64,000 nt of DNA from Patescibacteria group bacterium (GCA_023484515.1 JAMDAY010000019.1:30483-94482); one strand, 5' to 3'. Numbered from the stretch's first letter, positions 3,475 to 58,845 are shown. Numbers and translations: made by a program. Notes: generated by a model from the sequence alone, not told the origin.

Positions 3475-3690
3475 CCAATGTTCGGGAAAATTTTAAGGTC
3501 CGGTATTGACTGATGACATATAAGCTATGGAAAGCAGCCTGATTAAAACCTTCCAAAAAATAGCAAAAGATGCTTACCCTTGAAAATCCGCTTCGGTCTG
3601 CTGATAAACTTCCAGCGGCCGGAAAGACGGGAGAAAAAACCAGGCTGGAAATTGCGGAAGTTTGGGTGTAAAATGGAAGCGTAAGGAAGT

Positions 3691-3758
3691 GTTACCGAAT
3701 GCGCTTTTAAGGCGAAAATTGAAATTTTCAATTTGCGGTTAAAATATCATCCGGTAAC
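3691..3758 (+). repeat. family A repeat element, truncated copy (A4)
   Basis: Shares ccgaatgcgcttttaaggcgaaa with copy A3 and is closed by a gttaccg/cggtaac stem. Confidence 0.55.
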
Positions 3759-6633: not shown

Positions 6634-7575
6634 TCATAATTTTTCCACAGCCCGCAGCTTGGCGGGCTTGCTTCTGGGATTATTTTTTATTTCTTCAGGC
6701 GAAGCTGTTATGGGCTTTTTATTTAATAGCCTGGCTTGCGGATTCCTTCCGCACCGACAGATGGGAAAGTCCGGCGGACAAACGCAACCTTTACTCAATC
6801 CGGTAAAATATTTTTTTACTAAGCGGTCTTCCAGCGAATGGAAGGACACAACGGCCAGCCTGCCTCCCGGAGCCAGCAAACCAAAGGCTTTGGGCAGGAA
6901 TTCTTGCAAATTTTCCAGTTCATGGTTTACCGCAATCCTTAAAGCCTGGAACACCCTTCTGGCGCTGTCATCCGCGCGGTGCTTAAGCGGCTTGGGCAAG
7001 GCGTCTTTTATAACCTGGTATAGGTCGCTTGTGAATTTTATTTGGTTCTTGGTTCTTGTTTCCTGGACTTTCCGCGCGATTTGCGCGGCGAACTTTTCTT
7101 CCCCGTATTCTTTAAAAATTTTAATTAATTGGTCAATACTGTAATTATTTAAAATAAATTTGGCGTCTTCCTGTTCTTGGCTTTGGTCAAAACGCATGTC
7201 CAGCAGCTCTTTTTTTTGGAAGGAAATGCCTCTCTCCGACTGGTCCAGCTGATAGGATGACAACCCCAAGTCTGCCACAATTCCGTTCGGCACGGGAAAT
7301 TTATGACGGACAACAGCCTTGTCTATGTCGCGGAAATTCCCGTGAACAATCTGCCAATTTTTGATATTTGATATTTGGAATTTGATATTTTCTAAGGCAA
7401 CAAGATCAAGGTCTATAGATAGTAACTTCCCGTTAGGTTTAACTTTTTCAATAATTGCCTTACTGTATCCCCCGCCGCCCAAAGTCGCGTCCACAAAATT
7501 CTGCCCGGCCTGGGGATTTAAAATTTCCAAAACCTCTTTTAATAATACTGGGATGTGCTTGTAATCCATAATCAC
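6634..7575 (-). CDS. rsmH: 16S rRNA (cytosine1402-N4)-methyltransferase
   Basis: N-terminus HIPVLLKEVLE..DATLGGGGYS; follows mraZ. Confidence 0.9.
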   Translation of the reverse strand: MIMDYKHIPVLLKEVLEILNPQAGQNFVDATLGGGGYSKAIIEKVKPNGKLLSIDLDLVALENIKFQISNIKNWQIVHGNFRDIDKAVVRHKFPVPNGIVADLGLSSYQLDQSERGISFQKKELLDMRFDQSQEQEDAKFILNNYSIDQLIKIFKEYGEEKFAAQIARKVQETRTKNQIKFTSDLYQVIKDALPKPLKHRADDSARRVFQALRIAVNHELENLQEFLPKAFGLLAPGGRLAVVSFHSLEDRLVKKYFTGLSKGCVCPPDFPICRCGRNPQARLLNKKPITASPEEIKNNPRSKPAKLRAVEKL

Positions 7576-7650
7576 AAAGGGCGTCTTTCCGGGTATGCAG
7601 GCATTAGATTATTAGATGTTATCCATTACAGTAATACTCATTATTCAGTA

Positions 7651-7749
7651 TGAAGGCCGCCCTCTGGGATAATCTGTCTTAAGATTGATAATAGATGATG
7701 ATCATAGACTGATAATCTAAAGTTCGTTATTCCCAGAGGGCGGCCTTCA
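7651..7749. repeat. family B inverted-repeat element, copy B1 (19-bp perfect GC-rich arms TGAAGGCCGCCCTCTGGGA, AT-rich ~60-nt centre)
   Basis: Perfect terminal inverted repeat. Related copies at 15100, 48771 and 50849. A degenerate partial copy sits at 7578-7650. Confidence 0.75.
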
Positions 7750-7769
7750 AAACTCAGGCCTGTTGTAAT

Positions 7770-8222
7770 TTACACGCCCAGGGACCCTAACTGTTCCGCA
7801 ATGGCATTGCTTTGCTGTTCGGTTTGCTGCTTGTAGGCGGACCATAATTCTTCACTCCAGACTTCTATGCGGTTAAACAGGCCGGCAAAGACAATCTTCT
7901 TATTAATTTTGGCAAACTCCTTTAGGTAAGACGGCAAAATTATGCGCCCCTGCTTGTCCACTTCGCAGTCCATGGCGCCGGCTAGCATCAAGCGGGAAAA
8001 GGCGCGGGTATTGGCAGTGGAAATTGGCAGGCTGGCCAGCTTTTCCGCCAGCTTTTTCCATTCGTCCAAAGTGTATAAAAACAAGGAGTTATCCAATCCC
8101 CGGGTAACTACGACTTTGGCTTCCAATTGCGACCTAAACTTGGCCGGGATGGATATCCTGCCTTTGTCGTCTATGGTGCCTTGGTATTCGCCAATGAACA
8201 TAAAATTTTGAACAACGAACAA
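7770..8222 (-). CDS. mraZ: transcriptional regulator MraZ
   Basis: Duplicated DxxGR motifs (DDKGRISIP, DKQGRIILP). Confidence 0.9.
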   Translation of the reverse strand: MFVVQNFMFIGEYQGTIDDKGRISIPAKFRSQLEAKVVVTRGLDNSLFLYTLDEWKKLAEKLASLPISTANTRAFSRLMLAGAMDCEVDKQGRIILPSYLKEFAKINKKIVFAGLFNRIEVWSEELWSAYKQQTEQQSNAIAEQLGSLGV

Positions 8223-8434
8223 CTCCCCTAAATTTTCCTTTTAAATACGGGGAGAAGATTAATATACTGGATTTTGATTAAATCTCTAAAGCCATTAAAT
8301 TTTGTTTTAACTTGGGCATTCCGGTTTTAAAAACCCCATTTTTAGGAAGACTAGCGTTTTTAAGCTGATTTTGGCTTAAAAATTTGGGGATTTACAAACC
8401 CGGTGGGGAAAATGCCCAAGTTAGATTAAATTGA

Positions 8435-8475
8435 TTATCCACAAACTTTACCACTTATCCCCACTTTTATCCACT
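8435..8475 (+). promoter_or_regulatory. cluster of three co-oriented DnaA-box-like 9-mers (TTATCCACA perfect, TTATCCCCA, TTATCCACT) ~220-260 nt upstream of mraZ; a fourth (cTATCCACA) sits at 8603-8611
   Basis: Exact consensus 9-mer at 8435-8443. Lies in a ~700-bp AT-rich non-coding region. Confidence 0.4.
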
Positions 8476-8692
8476 TTTTACCATTACTCTGGTATTATAT
8501 ACCACTTTAAAACACCGGTCAAAGCAGTTTATATTAACCATTGTTAATATTATTCCTTATAATTAAAGTAAATATTTACTTAAATATTTAAGTAAATAAA
8601 AACTATCCACAAGTTTTCTCTAAAAAGTTTCCTTAACATAAATTTGTGCTTTATTACGACATATTTAAAATAAATAGTCCATTTTACAAGCA

Positions 8693-8722
8693 AAATAAAA
8701 AAACATCCTTGTTTAAGGATGT
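8693..8722 (-). terminator. rho-independent terminator (acatcctt..aaggatgt hairpin plus U-run on the minus strand)
   Basis: Perfect 8-bp stem with an A10 run on the plus side. Sits downstream of the SpoU methyltransferase gene. Confidence 0.55.
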
Positions 8723-8917
8723 TTGCCAGAATAAATAAAACTTCCTGGGATTAAGAGTAACGACAGCCACATTGCAACAGATCCAGCAAAGGAGGACGCC
8801 CCGGACTATCTGCTTAAAGATTGACAGATTGCTATCATTATCCGGTGATTAACAAATTACGGTCATAATCCGGTGATTAAAAGAGCACCATCGTTTGGAT
8901 GCGTCCGGTTAAAACCA

Positions 8918-9436
8918 TTACTGCAATTGCTGGGTTTTAAACCTGCTTCCGGAAAGCCAAAAGGCCGCAATACCGAAAGCCACGGAAACGTTAAGGCTTT
9001 CTTTTTGGCCGGACATGGGGATTTCTATAATCTGGTCGCAGAGCTTTAAAATGGGTTTGGGGATGCCTCTGGTTTCTTCGCCAAGGATTAAAGCCATCGG
9101 GAGTTTCGGTTTAGATTTATTTAATTCGACTGGGCGGCTGAAGCCTGCCCCTACATTGTTTTCCAGCGCTACGGTTCGCATTCCCCTATTTTTCAATTTT
9201 TTGATCAACCGTGAAACGGATTTGCAATATTCCCAAGGCACGAATTTTTCCGCGCCCAAAGCCACTTTGGCTATCTTTTTCCCGTTTAAATACTGGTCCG
9301 GGCGGCCGGTGTAGCCGGTCAAATAAATTTTTGTAACGCCAAATGCGTCCGCAATCCGAAAAATTGACCCCACATTGTAAAGCGAACGGATATTGTGGGC
9401 TATTACAAAAAAATCACGCGACTTTTTTAAGGCCAT
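8918..9436 (-). CDS. SpoU/TrmH-family RNA 2'-O-methyltransferase
   Basis: C-terminal LILGEETRGIP...SLNVSVAFGIA is the SPOUT knot motif. Confidence 0.75.
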   Translation of the reverse strand: MALKKSRDFFVIAHNIRSLYNVGSIFRIADAFGVTKIYLTGYTGRPDQYLNGKKIAKVALGAEKFVPWEYCKSVSRLIKKLKNRGMRTVALENNVGAGFSRPVELNKSKPKLPMALILGEETRGIPKPILKLCDQIIEIPMSGQKESLNVSVAFGIAAFWLSGSRFKTQQLQ

Positions 9437-9932
9437 ATCTTTTCCTGAAAAAGAAAAACCAAATTATATATATTATTGCCAGCAAGCCGTAATTTACAAT
9501 CATGGGAACCGTGTCGGCCCAGGAGACGGCGTAAGGGTTGTGGAAATTGGACAAGGGATAAAAGATAGGAGTGGAAAAATGGACTTTGTGCGTAAACACG
9601 TCCAAAAATATATGCAGCGGCCAGCCCCACATTGGCCAGTACATTTTTCCCCGGCGCAGCGCCAAAACAACCAGCAAAACCGCGGCAAATACCGCCAGGC
9701 TGTGGGTATAATTATAGCCGTAAACCGCAAAACCATAGGTCCAGGAATTTATTCCTTCCAAATGGCGGTGAATAGCGGCTGGATGGAAAATTAAGTAAGC
9801 GGACAGAGGGATAAATACCGACAAATCCGGCAGCAGCCCGAACAATACGGCAACAAACCGCCGCCTTTTTTCCGTACGGTATTTGTCATAAAAAGCCGCG
9901 TTAGTCCACAACGCGTGCGCAAAAACATCCAT
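9414..9932 (-). CDS. membrane-bound metal-dependent hydrolase-like (DUF457/YdjM-like) protein
   Basis: Polytopic, His-rich, with a generally similar pattern. Weak call. Confidence 0.4.
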   Translation of the reverse strand: MDVFAHALWTNAAFYDKYRTEKRRRFVAVLFGLLPDLSVFIPLSAYLIFHPAAIHRHLEGINSWTYGFAVYGYNYTHSLAVFAAVLLVVLALRRGKMYWPMWGWPLHIFLDVFTHKVHFSTPIFYPLSNFHNPYAVSWADTVPMIVNYGLLAIIYIIWFFFFRKRYGLKKVA

Positions 9933-9938
9933 AGTAAA

Positions 9939-10358
9939 TTAAGCGAGCAAATTTAGATTAAAGTCCTGGCTATGCTCCCGCTTTGCCTCCCCGTCCAGCT
10001 TGATCAAAAAAATTTCGCAAGTGGCGCCTACGGCCAGCTTGAACACATGGCCGCTAATGGAAGTAAAGTCGTTCCTGCCGAACACGCCATGCATGTGCAC
10101 TGCCGGTTTTCCGTCCAGCAAAGCCGCATTTCCGTTTAAGGAAACTATTTCAAAATTTTCCATATACGGTTTTTTCCGGTAGTCCTTTAAAAAAGCGTTA
10201 TAGTAACCTATCTCCAGGCTGGAGCACGACCCAATGCCGGAAAATCCGGCAGCCTGGATATTATTCTGCTCCAAAAAGCCGGTCAGGGACGAAACCAGTT
10301 CTTCGTCTTTGTCAAACCGCAGCAAAAACCTTCTATCATCTTGGAGGATAATTTTCAT
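9939..10358 (-). CDS. PPC (DUF296) domain protein; start moved to MKIILQDD
   Basis: ~140-aa PPC-like pattern with AGGA 4-5 nt upstream of the internal ATG. The ORF-track N-terminus looks non-coding. Confidence 0.5.
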   Translation of the reverse strand: MKIILQDDRRFLLRFDKDEELVSSLTGFLEQNNIQAAGFSGIGSCSSLEIGYYNAFLKDYRKKPYMENFEIVSLNGNAALLDGKPAVHMHGVFGRNDFTSISGHVFKLAVGATCEIFLIKLDGEAKREHSQDFNLNLLA

Positions 10359-10527
10359 ATTCCTTGGTTTTATCGCAAACAAAAGCCTCCCTGGCAACAC
10401 TTGTTTAAAGTAGCATCTATTTATATCAAGCTTTGTCTTAGCCAAATGTAAACTGGCGGGCGGGCATTGATGGACCGCTGGTCAGTCAAATATTACAATC
10501 CGACATCCTGCCCAACGGATGACGGGC

Positions 10528-10911
10528 TTACGCCAATTTTACGCTGCGCGCCAATACGTCCTTGACTTTCTGCATAATGTCGTCTACCGACTGGTCGCTC
10601 TTGAGCAAATAGTCGGTCGCCCCGGCTTCCAGGATTTTGCTGATGGTTTCCACGTCGCCCAAATTGGTAAGGACAATTACGGCTATCTTTGCGGTTTCGG
10701 GGTTAGCCTTAAGCTCCCACAGCACGGAAATGCCGTCCAGCTTGGGCATCATAATGTCCAAAAGCAGCAGGTCCGGCGCTATTTCCTTGGCCTTGGCCAC
10801 GGCATCTTCCCCGTCGTAGGCAGGGACCGGCTCATGCCCCGCGGCTTTTAACGCGTCGCAAAGGGAGTTGGAAATTAATTTGTCGTCCTCCGCGACCAAT
10901 ATTTTCGCCAT
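10528..10911 (-). CDS. single-domain response regulator (CheY-like receiver)
   Basis: ILVAEDD acidic pocket, LLLDIMMPKLDG phosphoacceptor region, and conserved T and K. Confidence 0.85.
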   Translation of the reverse strand: MAKILVAEDDKLISNSLCDALKAAGHEPVPAYDGEDAVAKAKEIAPDLLLLDIMMPKLDGISVLWELKANPETAKIAVIVLTNLGDVETISKILEAGATDYLLKSDQSVDDIMQKVKDVLARSVKLA

Positions 10912-10990
10912 ATTATAAAAAGTTAATTTTTAAAATTATGCATTTTCTTGCCACTTTATTATAGCAAATTAGCCAAGAAAATGCATAATT

Positions 10991-12676
10991 TTAAATTGGC
11001 AAGCTAAAATAAAACGTGCTTCCCAGGCTCTCTCCGGCGCTTTCCGCCCAAATCCGGCCGCCATGCGCTTCCACTATCCCCTTGCTGACCACCAGCCCCA
11101 AGCCCGTGCCTTTGCGTGAGCGGTCCGCGCTCTTAAGCTGCTTAAACTTGGAAAACAACTGGCTTAAGTCTTCCCTGGCCACCCCTATTCCCGAATCTTT
11201 CACCGATACTACGGCTTCTTTTTTCTCGGCGTTTGCCGCCAAATTTACTTCCACCTGGCCGCTGTCCGTATATTTTATGGCATTACTGATTAAATTTCCC
11301 AAGACTTGCCCTATCCTGACGCGGTCAAACTTTAACAGATACTTTTCCGGGGACGTCACGTTAAGCGTTAAATGCTTCTGCTCCGCCTGCGGCCTGAAAA
11401 CCTTAGCCTGTTCCTGGATTAATCCCACAAGGTCGTATTCCTGGACGTTCAGTTCAAACTTCCCCGCTTCCAGCTTGGCCACGTCAAGCAAGTCATTTAC
11501 CAGCTCCAGCATGTTGTTGGAAGCGGTTTCAATGGTGACTACCGTATCCTTGACTTTAGCCTGGTCGGCCCCGTTGGCGACGCTTAAATTCTTCAGCAGC
11601 GACTCCGAGGACCAGCGCACCGCGGTAAGCGGCGCCCGCAGTTCGTGGACCATCATGGCCGTAAAGTCCTGCCGCAGCTTGTCCAAAGATTTTTCCGTGG
11701 TAATGTCGTGGAAAACCACGCTGGAACCAAGTTTTTCCCCTTGGCTGTTTTTGACCGGAGAAATAGTCAGTTCCAAGGCCTTGTCCTTTAAAATTACCTC
11801 GTGGACAAAAATGGGCTTGTCCTCGGCCAGCGACTGCTCAATTTTTGTCCTTATGTCAACTTTGCCGGCCAAGCCGTCCACCACGTCAAACATGGTTAAA
11901 GCTTTGTCCTGCTCCAGCCCTAAAATCTTTTTAATGGCCGGATTGGACACTAGCAATTGGTTGTTTGTATTCACCATAACTACGCCGTCGGCCAAAGAAT
12001 AAATAATGGCGGCCAGCTTGCCTTTTTCGCTTTCCAGCACCGCTTGCAATTTGGATACCGCCATTGCCGCTTGGTTGGTAATGGTATATAAAATGGAGGC
12101 CTGCCCTTCCCCGAACCTGCCTTTTTCCACGGACGCCACATTAATTATGCCGACCAGTTTTTCCGAAATGACCACCGGCAGGTTAAAGAATGACTCCACT
12201 TCGGCCTTTAAATTGTCGTCCAAAATATTGCCCGTCACGCTTTCATCCACTACAGAAGGCTTTATTTCCCGGTTTAAAATGGCCGAATAAGACAGCAGCA
12301 TTTTTTCCTTCACCTGTTCTACAAACTCGTGATTGACCGTATTTTCCACATGGCATTTAAAAATAACTTTGCCGCTTTCTTCCAGCACCATATACGAAAC
12401 CGTGTCATACTCCAGCAAGTTCCCCAGGGAACTGGTAATGATGTCCACAATCTTGCCGGTATCCAGGGAGTAGCCGATGCGCTCGTTAATCTCTTTAAGC
12501 ACCTGGGCTTGGTAGACTTTTTGCTGCAATTCCAGGGACTGGCTGGCCTGCCGCCTTAAATATCGGCGTTCCTGCAAAGAAGAATACACGTAGCCGATTA
12601 TTACCACGGCCAGCATTACGAAATCTATAAATAAGAGAATATTGATTATCATTTTTGTTTTTAACTGCGGACTCAA
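10991..12676 (-). CDS. sensor histidine kinase (TM-GAF-PAS-HisKA-HATPase_c)
   Basis: H-box HELRAPLTAV, N-box NLISNAIKYT, G-boxes DSGIGV and GTGLGL. Confidence 0.85.
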   Translation of the reverse strand: MSPQLKTKMIINILLFIDFVMLAVVIIGYVYSSLQERRYLRRQASQSLELQQKVYQAQVLKEINERIGYSLDTGKIVDIITSSLGNLLEYDTVSYMVLEESGKVIFKCHVENTVNHEFVEQVKEKMLLSYSAILNREIKPSVVDESVTGNILDDNLKAEVESFFNLPVVISEKLVGIINVASVEKGRFGEGQASILYTITNQAAMAVSKLQAVLESEKGKLAAIIYSLADGVVMVNTNNQLLVSNPAIKKILGLEQDKALTMFDVVDGLAGKVDIRTKIEQSLAEDKPIFVHEVILKDKALELTISPVKNSQGEKLGSSVVFHDITTEKSLDKLRQDFTAMMVHELRAPLTAVRWSSESLLKNLSVANGADQAKVKDTVVTIETASNNMLELVNDLLDVAKLEAGKFELNVQEYDLVGLIQEQAKVFRPQAEQKHLTLNVTSPEKYLLKFDRVRIGQVLGNLISNAIKYTDSGQVEVNLAANAEKKEAVVSVKDSGIGVAREDLSQLFSKFKQLKSADRSRKGTGLGLVVSKGIVEAHGGRIWAESAGESLGSTFYFSLPI

Positions 12677-12860
12677 CGCGGATCCGCCAACTGGCGGACT
12701 ACGCAGATTTTTGCTGATTTGATAGCAAATAAGAATATCTTTTATTTACCGCGAATCTTAAAGCTTGCCCGAATTCAAATCTATAAGACAAAAATGCCGT
12801 TCTTTATGGTAATAATTTCCGCGAGAAATCCGCGTCGCTATCCGCGTTTATGTCCGCGAT

Positions 12861-13127
12861 TTACAGGCCTTTTACCGCCGGATATTTTTCCAGTAAAGTA
12901 TTTAGGGTCATCTGGGCAATCTGTCCGGAAAGCGTCATATATTCATTGGCCACGCCTTTTAACACCATTTGCGGGTCACCGTCCACATCCATAACCGTGC
13001 CGTCGTCCTGGACCACCAAACCGGGAATTTTCCTGGCCTTGTCCAGGGCAATGTTCGGCCCCAGCACCACCATTTGCTTTTGGATCAAGTCCGTCAGCAT
13101 TTTTTTATATTCTTCATGGTCAGGCAT
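12861..13127 (-). CDS. small hypothetical protein
   Basis: Open frame only; no motif. Confidence 0.3.
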   Translation of the reverse strand: MPDHEEYKKMLTDLIQKQMVVLGPNIALDKARKIPGLVVQDDGTVMDVDGDPQMVLKGVANEYMTLSGQIAQMTLNTLLEKYPAVKGL

Positions 13128-13424
13128 ATTTTTATGTATTTTTAATTCTAAATTTTTGATATTAATAAGATACGATAATTATAACATATAACGGCGGTTG
13201 TTCAAAATTGGGCGCTGCTGGCAGCGAATTCGCCTTTTCGGAAGAGGCCTGTTAATGGCAGGCTGATTATCAACTTTGGGCGACGGTGCCCATCTGGGAC
13301 AATTTTGCTTAAGTTTGGTTGATGATGATTATTATCCGGTAATCTTAAAAACATTTATCCCAGATGGGCACCGTCACTGCCATATACCTTTGCCCTATTT
13401 GGCCAAGGATACCCATCTCACTCC

Positions 13425-14792
13425 CTAATTTTCCCTTAGCCTCCCGAAGCCGATGGAATCCTTAAACACATTAGCAGCCTTAAGCACTGGAGCGCGGCAA
13501 AGGGTAAAGTCCCCGTATTTGGCATTAATTTTGTCCAAGGCCTTAGCCACGCGTTGCTGCCGCTCCACGCCGCCAAACAAACTAAGCTGGCCCGATGCCG
13601 GGCGCAGGCTCCCCACGGTAATGCCGATTAACCTGACCTCCGCGCTTTTTCTGTTTAACTCTTCCCAGATATTCAGCGCTTCTGAAAAAATTTCCTTGCC
13701 TTCGGAAACTGGATAGCCCAGCCTCTTGCTGCGGCCAAAACCCTGACGGCCGTCGTATTCGTAAAAACAAAGCACGCCTCCTTCCAAATTCGCGCGGCGG
13801 AGCCGCGCGGCCACCATCTCGGAGAGCTTGTATAGCACCGGCGCAAAATATTCCGGCTTGCGGAACTCCTTTGGCAAAGTGTACATGTGGCCCATGGATT
13901 TTATATCCTCGTCTTCTTCCACTTCCGGCTTGAACGACCCTTCCAACTGTCCCAAATTGTAAAGATGGTGGCCGGGCAGGCCGAACAAGGCCACCAGCCT
14001 GCTTTTGGGATAATTTTTCAAATCCAGCAAGGTCTTTATTCCCAGCCCGTTCAGCCGTTTTTCCATGCGGCTGCCAATGCCCGGAACGTCGGTAAGCCGC
14101 AACAGATTGTATAGTTGATGTTTTGATAAAAATACGCAGGCGTAACCATTTTTGTCATTTTTATTATTTTTGTCATTTATCACCGCCAGCCCGTCGGGCT
14201 TTTTTAAGTCTGAAGCGATTTTTGCCTGCAGCTTGTTCTCCGCAATGCCTATGGAGCAGGTTAAATAGTCCCCCACTTCGCTGGTTATGCGCCGCTTAAT
14301 TTCTTTTGCGATTTTTACGGCTTCCATGAACGGGTCCGCTTGCGGCATTATTTCTTTACCTAAGATGTAGGTCGGACGCAATAATTTTTGAAATTTTATA
14401 TTTGATATTTGGAATTTATTTGGAAATTGGAAATGGGAAATTGGAATTTTAACATTGCAGCTTGCCGTAACATCCAAGAATACCTCGTCTATGCTGTATC
14501 TTTCCACCTTGTCCGTGTAGTCGCCAACCACCTTAACGAACCGCTGGCTGTAATGCCGGTAGCGGTCAGGGTGAGTTTGGGTCAAAATGATTTTCGGATA
14601 CAGTTTGACCGCTTCCCAAACCGGCGTGCCTGTCTTAATGCCCCATTTTTTGGCCTGCACGCTGGCCGCGATGATAATGCCGCCCAAATGCTCGCACACG
14701 CCCACCGGCTTTCCCCGCCACGCCAAATTCTCCTGCTGCTCAACAGAGGCAAAATAACTATTCATGTCTATGTGCATAATAACGCTTTGCAT
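13425..14792 (-). CDS. dinB: DNA polymerase IV (Y-family, DinB); start moved to MQSVIMHIDMNSYFASVE
   Basis: DMNSYFASVE and SIDEVFLDVT motifs. Contains low-complexity inserts (DKNNKNDKN; FQISNIKFQ). Confidence 0.8.
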   Translation of the reverse strand: MQSVIMHIDMNSYFASVEQQENLAWRGKPVGVCEHLGGIIIAASVQAKKWGIKTGTPVWEAVKLYPKIILTQTHPDRYRHYSQRFVKVVGDYTDKVERYSIDEVFLDVTASCNVKIPISHFQFPNKFQISNIKFQKLLRPTYILGKEIMPQADPFMEAVKIAKEIKRRITSEVGDYLTCSIGIAENKLQAKIASDLKKPDGLAVINDKNNKNDKNGYACVFLSKHQLYNLLRLTDVPGIGSRMEKRLNGLGIKTLLDLKNYPKSRLVALFGLPGHHLYNLGQLEGSFKPEVEEDEDIKSMGHMYTLPKEFRKPEYFAPVLYKLSEMVAARLRRANLEGGVLCFYEYDGRQGFGRSKRLGYPVSEGKEIFSEALNIWEELNRKSAEVRLIGITVGSLRPASGQLSLFGGVERQQRVAKALDKINAKYGDFTLCRAPVLKAANVFKDSIGFGRLREN

Positions 14793-14841
14793 AGCCGCTG
14801 AATTAATGCTGATAGGGACGCTGAATGGACGCTGATGGGGA

Positions 14842-14860
14842 GGGCGGATAGTATCCGCCC
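14842..14860. repeat. family D hairpin GGGCGGATAGTATCCGCCC, copy 1
   Basis: Identical copy at 14918-14936. A copy with longer arms sits inside the transposase gene at 26723-26749. Confidence 0.65.
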
Positions 14861-14917
14861 ATACAAAATGGCAGCGAACTGATATAGGGCGTCTGTGGCG
14901 GATTGGATGGATGTAGG

Positions 14918-14936
14918 GGGCGGATAGTATCCGCCC
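14918..14936. repeat. family D hairpin GGGCGGATAGTATCCGCCC, copy 2
   Basis: See copy 1. Confidence 0.65.
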
Positions 14937-15039
14937 GTACCAAAGATTACCAATGACAATACCAGCCCATTGAGCGGCCCTTTCAGGCGTCATTCCGGAT
15001 ACCCCGACGTTATGTCGGGGTATCCGGAATCTTGTTCTC

Positions 15040-15069
15040 TGAACGCCTCAACCGGCGTTGAGGCGTTCA
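15040..15069. repeat. family C palindrome, copy 2 (perfect 13-bp arms)
   Basis: TGAACGCCTCAACCGGCGTTGAGGCGTTCA. Confidence 0.75.
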
Positions 15070-15099
15070 GCCAACTAACCCAACCGCTCCTACTGGCTA

Positions 15100-15195
15100 T
15101 GAAGGCGCCCTTCCGGGATCAGCCTGCTTAAGTTAGATTAACAATGATCAACATCCAATTATCTAAAGTTAGTTTATCCCGGAAGGGCGCCTTCA
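15100..15195. repeat. family B inverted-repeat element, copy B2 (arms TGAAGGCGCCCTTCCGGGA)
   Basis: 19-bp perfect inverted terminal arms, AT-rich centre with ttagatta..atctaaag. Confidence 0.75.
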
Positions 15196-15393
15196 CAACC
15201 CCATCGCCTCCTTGCGCAATGGGTACCCTTGAGCCCTTTCCGTATATCCGCAGATATCCGTATTCCGTAAAAATTCAGCCTTGCCAAAGCCGAATTTTCT
15301 TGATAAAATAAAGGTATACGAACGTATACCATATTAAAATAATACCCCTTAACAACTATTTCAGTAAAGCCCGGTTATCCACAATAAAAAACG

Positions 15394-15430
15394 CGCCGCA
15401 GTCTAGTAAACCGACTGCGGCGCTTTCCTA
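15394..15430 (-). terminator. terminator hairpin (gcgccgcagtc..gactgcggcgc plus U-run on the minus strand)
   Basis: 11-bp GC stem with an A-run on the plus side, directly after the stop of the 15438-15803 gene. Confidence 0.55.
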
Positions 15431-15437
15431 AAACGAG

Positions 15438-15803
15438 CTACAATGCAGGATCTGCCGAATTCAGCGCTTCTTTAATTCCGGCTTGGAAGGCAGGAATGTT
15501 GAGCTTGGCTATCCGCAGCGTCTCGTATGCCCCTGCTTCCAAGAAACCTTCAATGTCTCCAACGGAGAGGATTGTTCTGGAAATAATGACAACCTTACAG
15601 CGGCCATCTCCCAAGCGGTGCTTGCACTCCCGCACGAATTCCTCCCCCCAACTCTGCCAGACTAACAATAAGTCCGGCGGTTGTTCGCAAAGCTTTTGCA
15701 AAGCGCCGTCTCTCTGTTGGGCATCCCATAAAACAGTGGCGCCCACCTCTTTGAATGCCTTTCTAAACCATAGCCCGTACCAACCGCAAATCCCTACTGT
15801 CAT
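15438..15803 (-). CDS. receiver/flavodoxin-like fold protein lacking the phosphoacceptor Asp (pseudo-receiver), GC-rich
   Basis: PDLLLV-W..KVVIISR..GAYETL parallels receiver topology, but the acidic pocket and Asp are absent. Confidence 0.3.
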   Translation of the reverse strand: MTVGICGWYGLWFRKAFKEVGATVLWDAQQRDGALQKLCEQPPDLLLVWQSWGEEFVRECKHRLGDGRCKVVIISRTILSVGDIEGFLEAGAYETLRIAKLNIPAFQAGIKEALNSADPAL

Positions 15804-15929
15804 TACATTTCTCCTCTTTTTAAGTAAACTATAGTGTGCCCATTCATTGGATTATTGTGCCATTATGAGGAACGATGACATAAAATAATTATGGCCGATA
15901 AATCGGCACACTACATAGCTTATAAATTG

Positions 15930-16322
15930 TTATTTTGATCTTAATACCCTCAGCAGCGCGAATTTTTCCCGGTGGAAGGTGCTAAAACCTTGTTTATTGA
16001 ACAGCTTAACCGCGCTGGTGATGCTTAGGACTTCGCGGATTTTAAGCTTGGCCGCGCGCTCCAGGCATAAGTTGATCAGATGCGTGGCTATCCCCTGCTT
16101 CCGAAAATTCGCGTCCACTACCAAACTGCGAATCTCGGCGATCCGTTTTGAGTAAACTTCCAAGGCGCAGCAGCCGATAATTTTACCTTGCGATGCGGCA
16201 ACAAAAAAGTCCTTGGCCTTTGGCACCATGACTTGCATCAACTGCTGCGGGTGGCTGCGGATTAACTTTTTAATTGCAGGCATGTCAGCTAATCTGGCCT
16301 GCCGAAAAATTATTCCTTGCAT
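15930..16322 (-). CDS. GNAT-family N-acetyltransferase; start moved to MQGIIFRQA
   Basis: VDANFRKQGIATHLI is the acetyl-CoA-binding Q/RxxGxG/A motif. Confidence 0.65.
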   Translation of the reverse strand: MQGIIFRQARLADMPAIKKLIRSHPQQLMQVMVPKAKDFFVAASQGKIIGCCALEVYSKRIAEIRSLVVDANFRKQGIATHLINLCLERAAKLKIREVLSITSAVKLFNKQGFSTFHREKFALLRVLRSK

Positions 16323-16724
16323 ATTCCAAAATTCAGGATTACCCTTAATATTTACAGGCAATTTTGCGCTTCGCATAAAAATTTTATTGCAACCAATCTT
16401 CATCTTTGGACGCCCTATCTTTTAAAAACGTACCACTGGCGCAAAATTGCCTGTAAATATAACAAAGCCCGTCCCTGAAAATAATAAAATTACTTCCAAG
16501 GACGGGCTTGCCGCGGTACCACCTTGATTCCCGGCTGGCTGAAATTTAAGCTTCTTGATCAGGCAGCCGGACGCTCAATATCCATTTATACGGCTGGACT
16601 TCCGTTCCTATTTTAGGACAGCTCCCGGAGCGCGACTTCCGGTAGATGCTTTATAATATGCAATTGTAGGACTAATTGTAGCATAAGCAAGCACCCTGTC
16701 AATTGTGGATAAATATGCAACAAA

Positions 16725-16891
16725 CTAGAGCTGGTCTCATAACCTGCTTTTAAAGCGAAAATTCAGAATTTCGAGCAGATTGGCGCAAATAAATTTTGAC
16801 GTTTAACTGAAGTTAAGCGGAAAAATTTTTTGCGGCAAGATGCCGAAATTGTGAAATTGCAGCCAAAATGAGGTTATGAGACCAGCTCTAG
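16725..16891 (+). repeat. family A repeat element, copy A1 (~125-nt conserved core flanked by 21-bp copy-specific inverted repeats)
   Basis: Core gcttttaaagcgaaa...cagccaaaatg. Flanks ctagagctggtctcataacct / aggttatgagaccagctctag. Confidence 0.75.
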
Positions 16892-16934
16892 CCACCAGCC
16901 AACGCTTGGGGTTTATTTGATTAATCATAATAAT

Positions 16935-16972
16935 TAAAAAACACGGGCTTAATGGTGCCCGTGGTGTTTGGC
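16935..16972 (-). terminator. terminator hairpin (cacgggc..gcccgtg plus U-run on the minus strand) overlapping the stop of the 16949-17416 gene
   Basis: Seen in sequence. Confidence 0.4.
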
Positions 16973-17416
16973 TTGCTCGTGCCGGATGGCAATATGTCTT
17001 TTTTTGTGGGCCAGAAATATCATTACAAGAAAAACAAAATATCCGGTCCAAAACTGGTAATAACTAAATAAGGCAAAACCGGTAAAAAGCGAAGTTATGA
17101 GCAGGTCAAAAAACAAATCCAGCAAAAACCAAAAAATCGCCACAAACATTGATTCCAGGAAATTTATTACCCCCAACCGGCGCACTGCGGCCGCAGTGAT
17201 TACCATTACCGCTATCCAATAATAAAAACTGAACAGGGAATTGTTAAAACCCCAGTATTTGAAAAATAACACTTTCAGCGCAATCAGCAGGAACAACTGC
17301 CAGAACGTATAAATTGCCAATTTTTTAAAAGTCATATTAAACTGCCGCTCCTTGAAGAGTTTCTCCCCGGATAAATTTTCTTTAATATGGATTTGATAAT
17401 AATCATCAATCAACAA
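16949..17416 (-). CDS. polytopic membrane hypothetical protein
   Basis: Several TM helices; His-rich C-terminus. Confidence 0.4.
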   Translation of the reverse strand: MLIDDYYQIHIKENLSGEKLFKERQFNMTFKKLAIYTFWQLFLLIALKVLFFKYWGFNNSLFSFYYWIAVMVITAAAVRRLGVINFLESMFVAIFWFLLDLFFDLLITSLFTGFALFSYYQFWTGYFVFLVMIFLAHKKRHIAIRHEQAKHHGHH

Positions 17417-17471
17417 TCTAAAGATCGCTTGCCCCGGAAGAGACCCTTCAAGGAGATGCGCATTAGGTAAA

Positions 17472-17942
17472 TTATGGCCTGTTTTTTACCGCAGCCTTTG
17501 GCGCGCTTTTCCTTGCCATCTTCCTTTTAATCGGCTGCGGGGAAACCGGCAGCTCGCCTGCCAATTTTTCCAAATTCCCCAAATCTTTTTCCAGTTTCTG
17601 TTTTACGGAGGCGATTTTTTCTTCCAAATTATAATTACCCGAAGCCTTGGCCCGCCAGCGCTGGGCCAGATGATTCAGCATGCCTTTATGCGAACCTGCC
17701 TCGTAGACCAAACCATACCAATAATTTCCCAGCCACACGCCGTACCATGCCCCCAACATTAAGGCTAGAACCAAAGTAACATAATCCAGGGCCGCGAACT
17801 CCATATAGGACAGGCCGAAATTGAAATCCCGGTAATCCACTATTTGCAGCGCCAGGAAAAAAAACGCAATAATCCGGTGCAGCGTTAAAAACAGCAAAAC
17901 CCCAAGCAGGCTGCTTAAAAATATGTATAATGATTTTTTCAT
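17472..17942 (-). CDS. membrane hypothetical protein
   Basis: N-terminal TM helices followed by a coiled-coil C-terminus. Confidence 0.4.
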   Translation of the reverse strand: MKKSLYIFLSSLLGVLLFLTLHRIIAFFFLALQIVDYRDFNFGLSYMEFAALDYVTLVLALMLGAWYGVWLGNYWYGLVYEAGSHKGMLNHLAQRWRAKASGNYNLEEKIASVKQKLEKDLGNLEKLAGELPVSPQPIKRKMARKSAPKAAVKNRP

Positions 17943-18078
17943 GTTTGTTTCCTTAGGCTTTTGGTAATTTTATTATACCACAATTAAAAACGGCTACCAA
18001 GCGCATTACTTCCCTGGCCGCCTGCGCTTTACAGGCCAGGTTATAGGTTACCAGTTATTAAGTTATCTGCCATGCCGC

Positions 18079-19086: not shown

Positions 19087-19268
19087 ATAGTCCGTTGCCA
19101 ATAAATTTTCAGCTGATTAATCTTGAATACGCGGATTAACCAAATGCGATAGATTTTACTTTTTAACGCTTATCGTTAAAAATTTATTGCCAACGAACTA
19201 ATTATAACAAAAATTACGGTTTCAAGGAATTTGCCAAACCGGGTTAATTTTAGGTATAATAAATTACT

Positions 19269-20583: not shown

Positions 20584-20745
20584 GAGGTGGTCTAAAAACT
20601 CGCTTTGTAGGCGAAATTGCAAAATTTCGAGGCAGTTGGGACAAATAAATTTTGATGTTTAGCCGTAGGCTAAGCGGAGAAATTTTTTGGCCCAAATGGC
20701 CGAAATTTTGCAATTGCAGCCCAAATGGAGTTTTTAGACAGCCTC
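20584..20745 (+). repeat. family A repeat element, copy A2
   Basis: Conserved core with 18-bp copy-specific flanking inverted repeats gaggtggtctaaaaactc / gagtttttagacagcctc. Confidence 0.75.
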
Positions 20746-22972: not shown

Positions 22973-23145
22973 AGGCTAATTTTACCAAATTTAGCCAATA
23001 TAAAAAAGTGCAATCTTATTAATTTTAAGATTGTAAGATTGCGACGAATCGCTGCAAATTATGAGGAACACCTGCTGGGATTATTCATCCGATGACCAAC
23101 GAACATTAGTTGCGGGCTGATAGCTTGGCGAGGACATACGCCTCC

Positions 23146-23174
23146 TGAACGCCTCAACCGCGGTTGAGGCGTTC
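23146..23174. repeat. family C palindrome, copy 3
   Basis: TGAACGCCTCAACCGCGGTTGAGGCGTTC. A second palindrome cggctcaacgcgttgagccg lies ~160 bp downstream. Confidence 0.7.
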
Positions 23175-23414
23175 CCGCCATATAGGCCAGGCGGGTCTGT
23201 AGTTGCCTGATTCATCAGGCCCCTTTGCAAAGCTGAGTGAACTAAGCGACTGCTAGCTTAAGGGACAAGCCATGCTGCTGCGCGAACAATCATGGCAGGC
23301 CGCGACCGCTTGTGATCCGTTCGGCTATCTTTTAACGGCTCAACGCGTTGAGCCGTTGGAAACTATGCTGCCTGGCATTGGCTTTTAAACATTCCATGGG
23401 GTCCTGCAAAATAA

Positions 23415-25061: not shown

Positions 25062-25187
25062 GGAATTTCAAAAGCAAAAGAATGGACCTTTTGGGATAAA
25101 CAATCTTTAGATTATTTAACTAGCGATCATTATTAATCAATCTTAAGGAAAACAGTCTCAAAAAAGTCGCTCTTTTGCAACAATATT

Positions 25188-26506: not shown

Positions 26507-27010
26507 CTAACGGATAATGGTATTTTTCGGATGATATTTATCCAATTTCCACTTTAAAGGATTGTTGATAATATATTCACGGATTTTATCCAAAGATTCT
26601 TCCTTACGGATAACATGGTCGTAAAAAGATTTGTGCCAAGCGAAATTATTATCCGTAATATGTATTGCTTTAGAAGAAACTCTTTTAAACGATCCTACCA
26701 TTTGTGATATCGACGGCCTCTTGTAGGGGCGGATAATATCCGCCCCTACATCGCCTATTACGATTATGCCATGCACGTGATTCGGCATCACCCTGAACAC
26801 ATCCAAACTTATGCCTTTATAATACTTCGGAATTTCTTTCCAAAACTTTTCCGCGATTTTTCCCCATTCGTTTAAAATCATTTCTCCTTTTATTACCTCG
26901 CCAAAACAACACCGCATATCCTTCGCGCAAACCGTGACAAAATAAAATCCCGGCCGGGAATAGTCGTATTGCTTTAAACGATTTGCTTTCCTTTGCGGCA
27001 ATCCCTCCAT
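26507..27010 (-). CDS. IS200-like Y1 (HUH) transposase / REP-associated tyrosine transposase-like protein
   Basis: HUH motif MPNHVHGIIVI and C-terminal catalytic-Tyr region WHKSFYDHVIRKEESLDKIREYIINNP. A 27-bp perfect palindrome lies inside the CDS at 26723-26749. Confidence 0.65.
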   Translation of the reverse strand: MEGLPQRKANRLKQYDYSRPGFYFVTVCAKDMRCCFGEVIKGEMILNEWGKIAEKFWKEIPKYYKGISLDVFRVMPNHVHGIIVIGDVGADIIRPYKRPSISQMVGSFKRVSSKAIHITDNNFAWHKSFYDHVIRKEESLDKIREYIINNPLKWKLDKYHPKNTIIR

Positions 27011-40859: not shown

Positions 40860-41021
40860 GGGTCTGTTGCCGAATGCGCTTTTAAGGCGAAATTTCAGAA
40901 TTCCGAACAGATTGGCCAAAATAATTTTTGATGTTTAGCCGCAGGCTAAGAAGAAAAAATTTTTTGGCCAGGATGCCGAAATTCTGAAATTGCAGCCAAA
41001 ATGGCATTTGGCAACAGACCC
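40860..41021 (+). repeat. family A repeat element, copy A3
   Basis: Conserved core with flanking inverted repeats gggtctgttgccgaatgc / gcatttggcaacagaccc. Confidence 0.75.
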
Positions 41022-48671: not shown

Positions 48672-48727
48672 GCTGTTATTATGGCAGATTTTGGGGAAAA
48701 ATAAAACTGCTTTAAATAAGGCGGTTT

Positions 48728-48754
48728 GAACGCCACAACACGTGTTGAGGCGTT
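48728..48754. repeat. family C palindrome, copy 4 (one arm mismatch)
   Basis: GAACGCCaCAACACGTGTTGAGGCGTT. Confidence 0.6.
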
Positions 48755-48770
48755 GGGATTTTTGGCAGTA

Positions 48771-48862
48771 AAGACGCCCTTCCGGGACCAGCCTTTTAAA
48801 GTCAGATTAATTATGATTAATATCTGATAATCTAAAGTTTGTATATACCGGAAGACCGTCTT
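48771..48862. repeat. family B inverted-repeat element, copy B3 (arms 13/15 matched)
   Basis: aagacgcccttccgg ... ccggaagaccgtctt with an AT-rich centre containing gataatctaaag. Confidence 0.6.
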
Positions 48863-49006
48863 CACCCCGGAGACGCCGGCTTTGGCTATTTTTGCCGGGA
48901 TGGACCGCGACCGACGCGGCCCGCACTACATTTGATGCATGAATAAAAGCGGCCAGTGGCCGCTTTTGAAATCTTTTAATCTTTCAATTTTCAATTCTTA
49001 AATTTG

Positions 49007-50732: not shown

Positions 50733-50848
50733 ATATATTTTGCTAGAACTTTAGGGAATACGGATCCGTCAGCCGCGTAAATTCATCCTGCGTGGCTATC
50801 TGGCGGAGTACGAATATACGGATGTAGAATCCTTGATCCTTTCCGGCA

Positions 50849-50945
50849 GTGAAGGCGCCCTTCCGGGATAAGTGATTTTAAATTGTTAGATGTTGATTAC
50901 TATCAAACTTACTTTAGAAGGCTTGTTCCGGAAGGGCGCCTTCAC
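50849..50945. repeat. family B inverted-repeat element, copy B4, in the rpsE-rplO spacer where rpmD (L30) normally sits
   Basis: 18-bp perfect arms GTGAAGGCGCCCTTCCGG. Confidence 0.75.
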
Positions 50946-50989
50946 CCTCTATCCGTATATCCGTATTAATCCGTATTCCGTAAAAATAA

Positions 50990-52986: not shown

Positions 52987-53091
52987 AAGATTAATTGAAC
53001 AAAAATTAAAAAAATTAAATAAATGACAAAAATAAGGATTCTTTATTGTTTTTATTATTTTTGTTCACTTTTGCCATTTTTGTCATTATTG

Positions 53092-54328: not shown

Positions 54329-54431
54329 AAAATTACATTTAACTATCTCTTTACGGAATATGGACTTTTGCGGATATACGGATTCCGGAGATCCTTTCCG
54401 TATATTCGTATTAATCCGTATTCCGTAAAGC

Positions 54432-55408: not shown

Positions 55409-55509
55409 ACTATATATATTCGGTAATTAATCGCTGGTTGTTACGCTGGTCTGCCGCTGATAGGCTTCAGCGTCTATTCAGCGTAGCTATCAGCGTTCTT
55501 TCAGCGGCA

Positions 55510-58747: not shown

Positions 58748-58845
58748 AAAAATTATTGAACAAAAGTTAAAAAATTGGCAAAATTGACAAAAGTTTATTG
58801 CATCCTAATTTTATTATTTTTGTCAATTTTGTTCATTTTTGTCAT

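Follow-up and report, generated by a model that had tools for sequence, protein, structure and literature searches.

A family of short palindromic repeats, here called Family B, recurs through the 64-kb stretch of Patescibacteria DNA analysed in this work (the window). With somewhat better than even probability, Family B is a lineage-specific, non-autonomous dispersed palindromic repeat family of the REPIN/ERIC/Correia kind that resides in intergenic spacers. Rather than a new regulatory system, it most likely represents a parasitic or hitch-hiking DNA element of small size. The general kind of element is already known; the pattern of conservation, which combines variable, compensated arms with a conserved centre, is unusual.

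The nearest named relatives of the source organism, by the L15 protein, are Candidatus Doudnabacteria with an identity of at most 82%. An independent Logan contig of the same organism (L052) adds 6 kb adjoining the window, and together they cover ~70 kb of the genome. The 19-mer arm of the original prediction, when searched with up to three mismatches, gives six matches in the window against 0.02 expected from shuffles, and an inverted-repeat scan shows arms at 7651–7749, 15095–15200, 50849–50945, 13282–13375 and 17348–17455. The repeats are thus present at the predicted places far beyond chance. A covariance model was built from seven window copies and run on the window, L052, relatives and unrelated bacteria; it recovers its seven training copies at 76–115 bits and adds two decayed copies. 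Four copies had been counted originally, together with a degenerate fifth that abuts the copy at 7651. The fifth is a real half copy, and the full count for the window is seven full copies, two decayed copies and one half copy, i.e. 10 B-derived segments, or 12 in ~70 kb when L052 is included:

7578–7650, minus strand: half copy with left arm AAAGGGCGTCTTTCCGGG and centre and without a right arm; abuts the copy at 7651, 8 nt upstream of the rsmH start codon
7651–7749, plus strand: full copy, arms TGAAGGCCGCCCTCTGGGA and its perfect complement; between mraZ (7770–8222, minus strand) and rsmH (6634–7569, minus strand); 103 bits
13282–13375, plus strand: full copy, arms GACGGTGCCCATCTGGGA and its perfect complement, with four arm positions unlike the commonest arm, all compensated; between the convergent ends of genes 12850–13191 (plus strand) and dinB-like 13425–14993 (minus strand); 104 bits
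15100–15195, plus strand: full copy with the commonest arm TGAAGGCGCCCTTCCGGGA, perfect; within a 650-nt repeat-filled region upstream of the dinB-like gene; 115 bits
17348–17455, plus strand (orientation ambiguous): full-length copy, imperfect, the arms (CTCCTTGAAGAGTTTCTCCCCGGA ...) being longer; flanked by two genes that lack annotation; 85 bits
25073–25179, minus strand: decayed copy, centre GGGATAAACAATCTTTAGATTAT kept and arms mostly gone; between the iPGM and enolase genes; 47.7 bits
40735–40826, plus strand: divergent, GC-richer copy; between dnaX and a PEMT-like gene, 34 nt from 40860–41021, a copy of another repeat family; 76 bits
45953–46050, minus strand: weak decayed copy (TTCGGGATAAACAGACTTTAGATTAT ...); 23 bits, E ~0.002
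48769–48864, plus strand: copy whose arms have loosened; lies downstream of secY, and a 31-nt GC hairpin belonging to another family is 12 nt away; 93.5 bits
50849–50945, minus strand: full copy; in the 257-nt rpsE–rplO spacer, which is taken up by a larger 'CCGTAT'-family inverted repeat with this copy nested in its loop; 95 bits

Family B is not confined to the window, since L052 carries one further perfect copy at the contig end (7653–7754) and a solo arm 30 nt beyond it, and a relative carries a B-like hairpin (below). Logan contigs of the source organism break at or near repeat families, e.g. the end of L052 and the ends of L001 (window positions ~40979 and ~58783). This indicates that the repeats are multi-copy throughout the genome and limit the contiguity of the MAG.

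The Family B unit is 92–108 bp in length. Arms of 17–20 bp (longer in copy 17348) with ~65–70% GC enclose an AT-rich, weakly paired centre. The copies have in common the inner end CYGGGAYAA / TTRTCCCRG, CTTAAG/CTAAAG-type motifs and a (G/A)ATCAT-like tip. The outer 12–14 nt of the arms vary among copies, and arms differ from one another at 4–5 of 18 positions; the variants are GAAGGCGCCCTT, GAAGGCCGCCCT, GACGGTGCCCAT and GATGACGCACAT, with GAGGGCCGTCCT in a relative. There are at least five distinct arm sequences, and the two arms are perfectly complementary in six of nine full copies. The exact complement described originally does not hold at 50849–50945, whose right arm displays one mismatch within the 19-mer. 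The arm sequence quoted for 7651–7749 also requires correction, as the actual arms (TGAAGGCCGCCCTCTGGGA and complement) differ from it at ~4 positions, all compensated. Within the element, it is the arms that vary; conservation is found in the centre and inner ends. A GGCAG/CTGCC motif adjoins some arms and looks like the remains of a longer ancestral arm. Insertion of a conserved core into pre-existing target hairpins, such that the arms represent target DNA, was considered and rejected because all arm variants are visibly homologous, with the common pattern GANGGyGCCCnTCYGGGA.

For the count of pairs, nine copies were aligned after correction for orientation. Of the 20 bp in the basal helix, nine pairs show two-sided changes, one pair shows one-sided variation alone, and G–U intermediates are nearly absent. 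When all 28 pairs in the tested structure are counted, compensated cells number 30, compared with 10.8 in shuffles; none of 500 shuffles reaches 30. The covariation score is 0.356, but falls to 0.03–0.11 when the partners are slid by 1–3 columns. Each arm had also been described as a mini-palindrome, GAAGG-CGC-CCTTC. The commonest arm type does have it, and the variants retain it in part. Paired cells make up 78% in one arm and 93% in the other; in two copies all four linked positions have changed in a concerted way, and in two the palindrome is broken.

The long RNA hairpins expected by the original prediction are seen in folding, where the predicted RNA structure gives a delta G of −29 to −56 kcal/mol on either strand and z of −4.6 to −10 in six of seven copies. 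The exception is the divergent copy 40735, with z ~ −2. Copy 7651–7749 has an RNA delta G of −49/−51 and z ~ −10, and a DNA delta G of −28. As single-stranded DNA, the copies show a predicted delta G of −25 to −28.5 kcal/mol and z of −7 to −9. By these models the hairpins would certainly form if transcribed.

Orientation was assigned by comparison of the centres only. By this measure, 7651, 13282, 15100, 48769 and the L052 copy point one way and 50849, 25073, 45953 and the half copy 7578 the other; 17348 is ambiguous. The half copy is thus opposite to its neighbour 7651. Intact copies split 7:1 at best and all copies 7:4. A reading in which all seven copies are co-oriented was dropped, as the model had been trained in that orientation, which is circular, and the centre-only comparison shows inversions. 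No target-site duplication, constant flank or fixed target motif is present at nine copies.

Because compensation is Watson–Crick only, copies occur in either orientation and target-site duplications are absent, the propagation or persistence of Family B would depend on exact arm complementarity at the DNA level. The element may spread, or may have spread, via a single-stranded DNA hairpin intermediate handled by a structure-specific enzyme, for which only perfectly paired copies would serve as substrates. REPINs, which are hairpin doublets, behave in this manner and show common compensatory changes (PMC3116915). As an alternative or additional process, replication template switching within quasi-palindromes may keep the arms perfect, a single event sufficing to copy a change in one arm into its partner. 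Perfect hairpins can both arise and persist by template switching (PMC8794818).

A candidate for such an enzyme is encoded in the window:

26507–27010, minus strand: RAYT-family Y1 (HUH) transposase gene, with PF01797 and NF047646 matches and HxH and SFYDH motifs

The sequence scores 26.3 bits against PF01797 (Y1_Tnp; cut-off 23) and 54 bits against NF047646 (REP_Tyr_transpos; E 1.3e-14), the latter falling short of the equivalog cut-off of 80 bits. JGI annotates homologues as RayT, and HxH and SFYDH are invariant in the alignment. A PDB sequence search with the RAYT-like protein gave no match. The gene is wedged between a lycopene-cyclase-like gene and the enolase gene. It is the obvious but unproven candidate for the enzyme that would mobilise Family B. 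However, Family B copies do not flank it; the nearest B-derived segment is the decayed copy 25073–25179, 1.3 kb away beyond the enolase gene. Instead, the hairpins in and beside the gene (GTAGGGGCGGATATTATCCGCCCCTAC and GGGGCAGGTTTGGAAACCTGCCCC) are of the type GTAG-GGGCGG / GGGGCAGG. The contig of the closest RAYT homologue also carries a GTAGGGGCGG hairpin, and the flanks of the two nearest homologues show no B-like element. These hairpins suggest that the cognate repeat of the RAYT is probably the GTAG-GGGCGG family and not Family B, which counts against the favoured explanation.

Within the RAYT gene, the perfect 27-nt palindrome GTAGGGGCGGATATTATCCGCCCCTAC (26725–26751) encodes the variable linker of the protein, peptide VGADIIRPY, and belongs to the same family as the extragenic repeats at 14834 and 14910. 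The RAYT homologue P0126 has VGEDIILPH at the same place, so that this RAYT clade may retain a REP-like hairpin within the gene.

The window contains at least five other palindromic families:

14834–14868, 14910–14944 and 26719–26753, and 8200–8247 of contig L137: REP-like hairpins with a GTAG head (GTAG-GGGCGG...CCGCCC-CTAC); family GTAG-GGGCGGATAnTATCCGCCC-CTAC
1609–1639, 15039–15069, 23145–23175 and 48726–48756: 31-nt GC-rich perfect hairpin CTGAACGCCTCAACCGGCGTTGAGGCGTTCA
15236–15274, 50949–50987 and 54349–54430: 'CCGTAT' family, hairpins with 34-nt arms; also the whole spacer 50733–50989
16725–16891, 20584–20745 and 40860–41021, with a fragment at 3690–3727: MITE-like elements of 146–167 bp with 24–27-nt terminal inverted repeats and a spacer of ~114 nt
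16348–16460 and 19088–19200: 22-nt perfect or near-perfect inverted arms with a 69-nt spacer, possibly another small repeat family

Two of the four 31-nt hairpins lie 12–30 nt to the left of Family B copies. In the S5–L15 spacer, two 'CCGTAT' arms enclose the Family B copy, in the manner of a nested insertion. The region 14790–15437, ~650 nt upstream of the likely true dinB start, contains six different repeat units; the GTAG-head copies 14834 and 14910 are read there as part of a spurious N-terminal extension of the dinB open reading frame, and the 522-aa call probably over-extends into these repeats.

Comparison with relatives shows that the sites of Family B differ between genomes:

S5–L15 spacer: 257 nt with Family B in the source genome; 88, 32 and 90 nt without it in relatives
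mraZ–rsmH spacer: 200 nt with Family B in the source genome; 151, 24 and 90 nt without it in relatives
L29–S17 spacer: empty (29 nt) in the source genome; a 107-nt B-like hairpin in the relative L047

The nearest relatives share ~80% L15 identity, so these empty sites are not alignable base by base. The hairpin of L047 (81% L15 identity) displays perfect 19-bp arms, TTGAGGGCCGTCCTCTGGC, which match the arm of copy 7651 at 15 of 19 positions, and the covariance model scores it at 43.5 bits (E ~1e-8). In ~156 kb of Doudnabacteria-like relatives the model finds nothing besides this hairpin, and in ~620 kb of unrelated bacteria, the negative control, nothing significant. The lack of Family B from the same spacers in relatives, together with a homologue at L29–S17, implies that the family moves or has been gained and lost over evolutionary time. 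By these sequence comparisons, Family B is young or lineage-restricted and its sites are not conserved. The exact 18-mer, searched in 185,579 species genomes, a set in which the source genome is evidently not a species representative, is absent from Patescibacteria and gives 45 single chance matches in high-GC taxa. A scan of viral contigs gave two chance matches, neither of which has a covariance-model match, and BLAST against plasmids and phages showed no Family B match.

In the Doudnabacteria relative L144, an IS1595-family transposase is situated just upstream of mraZ with a large serine recombinase nearby (7769–8629, 15318–16754). Mobile elements around the dcw cluster of this clade are therefore not rare.

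The minus strand carries nearly all of the window's genes. Pfam confirms the flanking genes MraZ, RsmH, a DinB-like polymerase, DnaX, iPGM, enolase, S5, L15 and SecY, with the S5 and L15 assignments made on the identical Logan contig. The predicted position of one copy between mraZ and rsmH is thus upheld. The placement of another between rpsE and rplO also stands, although its description as the place of rpmD reflects a coincidence of position and carries no weight: in all relatives examined L15 comes straight after S5, so the 'missing rpmD' is the normal CPR condition and the gene was not replaced by the element. Absence of L30 is reportedly a CPR trait. Since most copies lie between co-directional genes, those in operons are presumably co-transcribed and would place 17–25-bp perfect double-stranded RNA stems in the dcw and spc operons.

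These stems raise the possibility that Family B copies are host-selected, cis-acting RNA hairpins, i.e. intercistronic processing or stability signals (RNase III sites, 3′ end protectors) that would divide or tune polycistronic mRNAs such as mraZ–rsmH and the spc operon. The co-directional setting of most copies agrees with this, as do the strong covariation and the 17–25-bp stems, a perfect duplex of this length being long enough for RNase III. In addition, relatives display unrelated long hairpins in the same spacers (S5–L15 in L051; mraZ–rsmH in L141, delta G −31.5) and in many ribosomal protein spacers. Several features do not fit. Counts of G–U-compatible mismatches are similar for the two strands (23 and 26), so there is no excess on the transcribed strand and no RNA-strand signature from wobble counts, and the differences in energy between strands are mixed. 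One-sided stem changes are almost absent, which is unusual for an RNA helix under selection. The operon copies 7651 (mraZ–rsmH) and 50849 (rpsE–rplO) have opposite orientations relative to their transcripts, copy 13282 lies between convergent genes, decayed and truncated copies exist, and the sites are not conserved among relatives. Selection for an RNA function is on balance rather unlikely as the explanation for Family B.

The unrelated hairpins found in the same operon spacers of relatives leave room for host-level selection for 'some hairpin here'. In the S10/spc and dcw operons of the clade, almost all spacers contain long hairpins made of short tandem units (TTGACAAAA, ACGCTGA, ACGAAC, TTGAAAA and others). 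The sequences are lineage-specific and the positions the same, and the spacers of ~80–150 nt are unusually long for ribosomal operons. Examples are:

Window: 52993–53070, 58770–58840 and 55409–55509
L047: 4563–4657 and 10432–10533
L051: 4965–5045 and 6640–6728
L054: 4101–4155 and 8862–8937
L140: 13568–13668
L141: 9850–10000

A clade-wide rule for the S10/spc and dcw operons of Doudnabacteria-like CPR genomes can be imagined, by which nearly every conserved-operon spacer carries a lineage-specific selected hairpin and Family B is a version that has also turned mobile. We give this a low probability.

A host function at the DNA level, in which the hairpin or cruciform and AT-rich centre would form a site for a nucleoid protein, gyrase or similar, is improbable. 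A role as sites of protein binding or action has been proposed for the E. coli BIMEs and RIP elements, and the strictly Watson–Crick complementarity of Family B, its independence of orientation and the conservation of an AT-rich centre between variable arms would suit such a site. Against this, no IHF-type consensus is recognisable in the centres by inspection, the family is not found at the same sites in relatives, with the sole B-like homologue in L047, and the decayed copies argue against an essential role.

Transcription terminators, either U-tract-independent or bidirectional, are very improbable. The hairpins are strong with a GC-rich base, copy 13282 lies between convergent genes, and copy 48769 follows secY at the end of the spc operon. 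However, none of the copies has its stem followed by a T/U run, on either strand, and no Family B copy is among the terminator-like sites listed for the scanned region 7000–18000. Termination at 50849 or 7651 would also cut off essential downstream genes. The attenuator or terminator role raised by the original prediction is not supported by these results.

Independently transcribed small RNA genes would account for the ~100-nt size, stable fold and covarying stem, but are highly improbable: Rfam gives no match at gathering threshold in the whole window, the sub-threshold matches being to generic miRNA-precursor hairpin models only (33.9 bits against 100 needed), the copies show no consistent promoter-like site (one has a weak match), and they occur in both orientations, include decayed copies and are absent from relatives except for the L047 homologue.

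Assembly artefacts or chimeric joins, which might be suspected because Logan contigs of the organism end at or near repeats (L052 ends inside a Family B copy), are practically excluded. A Logan contig of independent origin, reported from two samples, matches the window with 100% identity for 17.8 kb and runs through copies 48769, 50849 and 45953, which shows that the window is not mis-assembled. In addition, the copies are not identical in sequence, and the conserved genes that flank them are intact.

The favoured explanation, a dispersed palindromic repeat, invites comparison with known elements. Like Family B, REPINs of the REPIN/RAYT system have a unit of ~90–100 bp with two inverted GC-rich ends and a spacer that forms a long hairpin, are extragenic and numerous in a genome, occur also as singlets and fragments, and display common compensatory changes and no target-site duplications (PMC3116915). 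A RAYT-family gene is likewise present in the genome that bears Family B. On the other hand, the ends of REPINs (a 16-mer overlapping the REP) are near invariant and the spacer varies. The reverse is true of Family B, in which variation lies in the arms and conservation in the centre and inner ends. This is also the reverse of MITEs and counts against the explanation favoured here. REP ends carry a GTAG/GTGG-type head that Family B does not have. In the REPIN system the repeats flank the RAYT gene, whereas Family B does not, and different (GTAG-GGGCGG) hairpins are found there.

Correia elements (CREE/NEMIS) of Neisseria are ~100–155-bp elements with terminal inverted repeats and a conserved core (PMC2649163). 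Like Family B they are intergenic, with occupancy that differs between strains for Correia and between relatives for Family B. They are co-transcribed, with an RNA hairpin bound or cut by RNase III (PMC2649163). They have fixed 26-bp terminal inverted repeats, a TA target duplication, an IHF site and promoter-forming ends. Family B differs in having variable, compensated arms, no target-site duplication and no promoter-like ends. Family B has the perfect duplex of at least 17–20 bp between co-directional genes that a Correia-like substrate of RNase III would need.

ERIC/IRU sequences are reportedly imperfect palindromes of ~127 bp located in transcribed intergenic regions, and are said to occur in either orientation with substitutions that preserve the structure. 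Family B is alike in its palindromic form, either orientation and structure-preserving changes; there is no sequence similarity and the phylum is another. In addition, ERIC copies are largely at conserved sites across species, whereas Family B sites are not common to relatives. The BIME and RIP elements of E. coli resemble the Family B region in the clustering of different palindromic units in one spacer (14790–15437; 50733–50989), but the unit sequences and lengths are unrelated to Family B.

Two other classes were considered and rejected. A classical, DDE-dependent MITE, also among the original suggestions, does not agree with the absence of target-site duplications at nine copies, the variable and not conserved terminal inverted repeats and the absence of a parent IS in ~70 kb. 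Integron attC sites have R''/R' core sites (RYYYAAC ... GTTRRRY), a variable centre and a cassette array by intI. Family B shows ends of TGAAGG...CCTTCA, a conserved centre and core-gene neighbours (mraZ/rsmH, rpsE/rplO).

The reading of Family B as a non-autonomous hairpin repeat also draws on the truncated, decayed and nested copies and on the occupancy that varies among relatives. The clustering and nesting of Family B with other palindromic families was also counted in its favour. In these respects the REP/BIME- or MITE-like dispersed palindromes of the original prediction are borne out, and its repeat-element part gains from the empty spacers of relatives, the homologue at another spacer and the RAYT-family transposase in the window. 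RNase III cleavage, 3′ end protection or any other influence of the elements on mRNA would have arisen secondarily, as a by-product or by co-option.

In the literature searched, neither such repeats nor REP/RAYT systems are described for Patescibacteria/CPR. Genomes of this group are ~1 Mb in size and are regarded as streamlined. The present genome carries Family B at a density of ~1 unit per 6–8 kb, together with a RAYT-type transposase and no fewer than five further families of palindromes. Repeats of the Family B type break short-read assemblies of such MAGs. As Family B copies are found inside essential operons, they could affect mRNA processing. If the clade-wide rule were true, the hairpins would be intercistronic RNA (or single-stranded DNA) processing or insulation sites, both generated and kept perfect by template switching. 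Family B offers an exceptionally clear example of stems whose divergence is strictly two-sided and Watson–Crick only, a pattern relevant to the question of which process, selection or replication template switching, keeps hairpins perfect.
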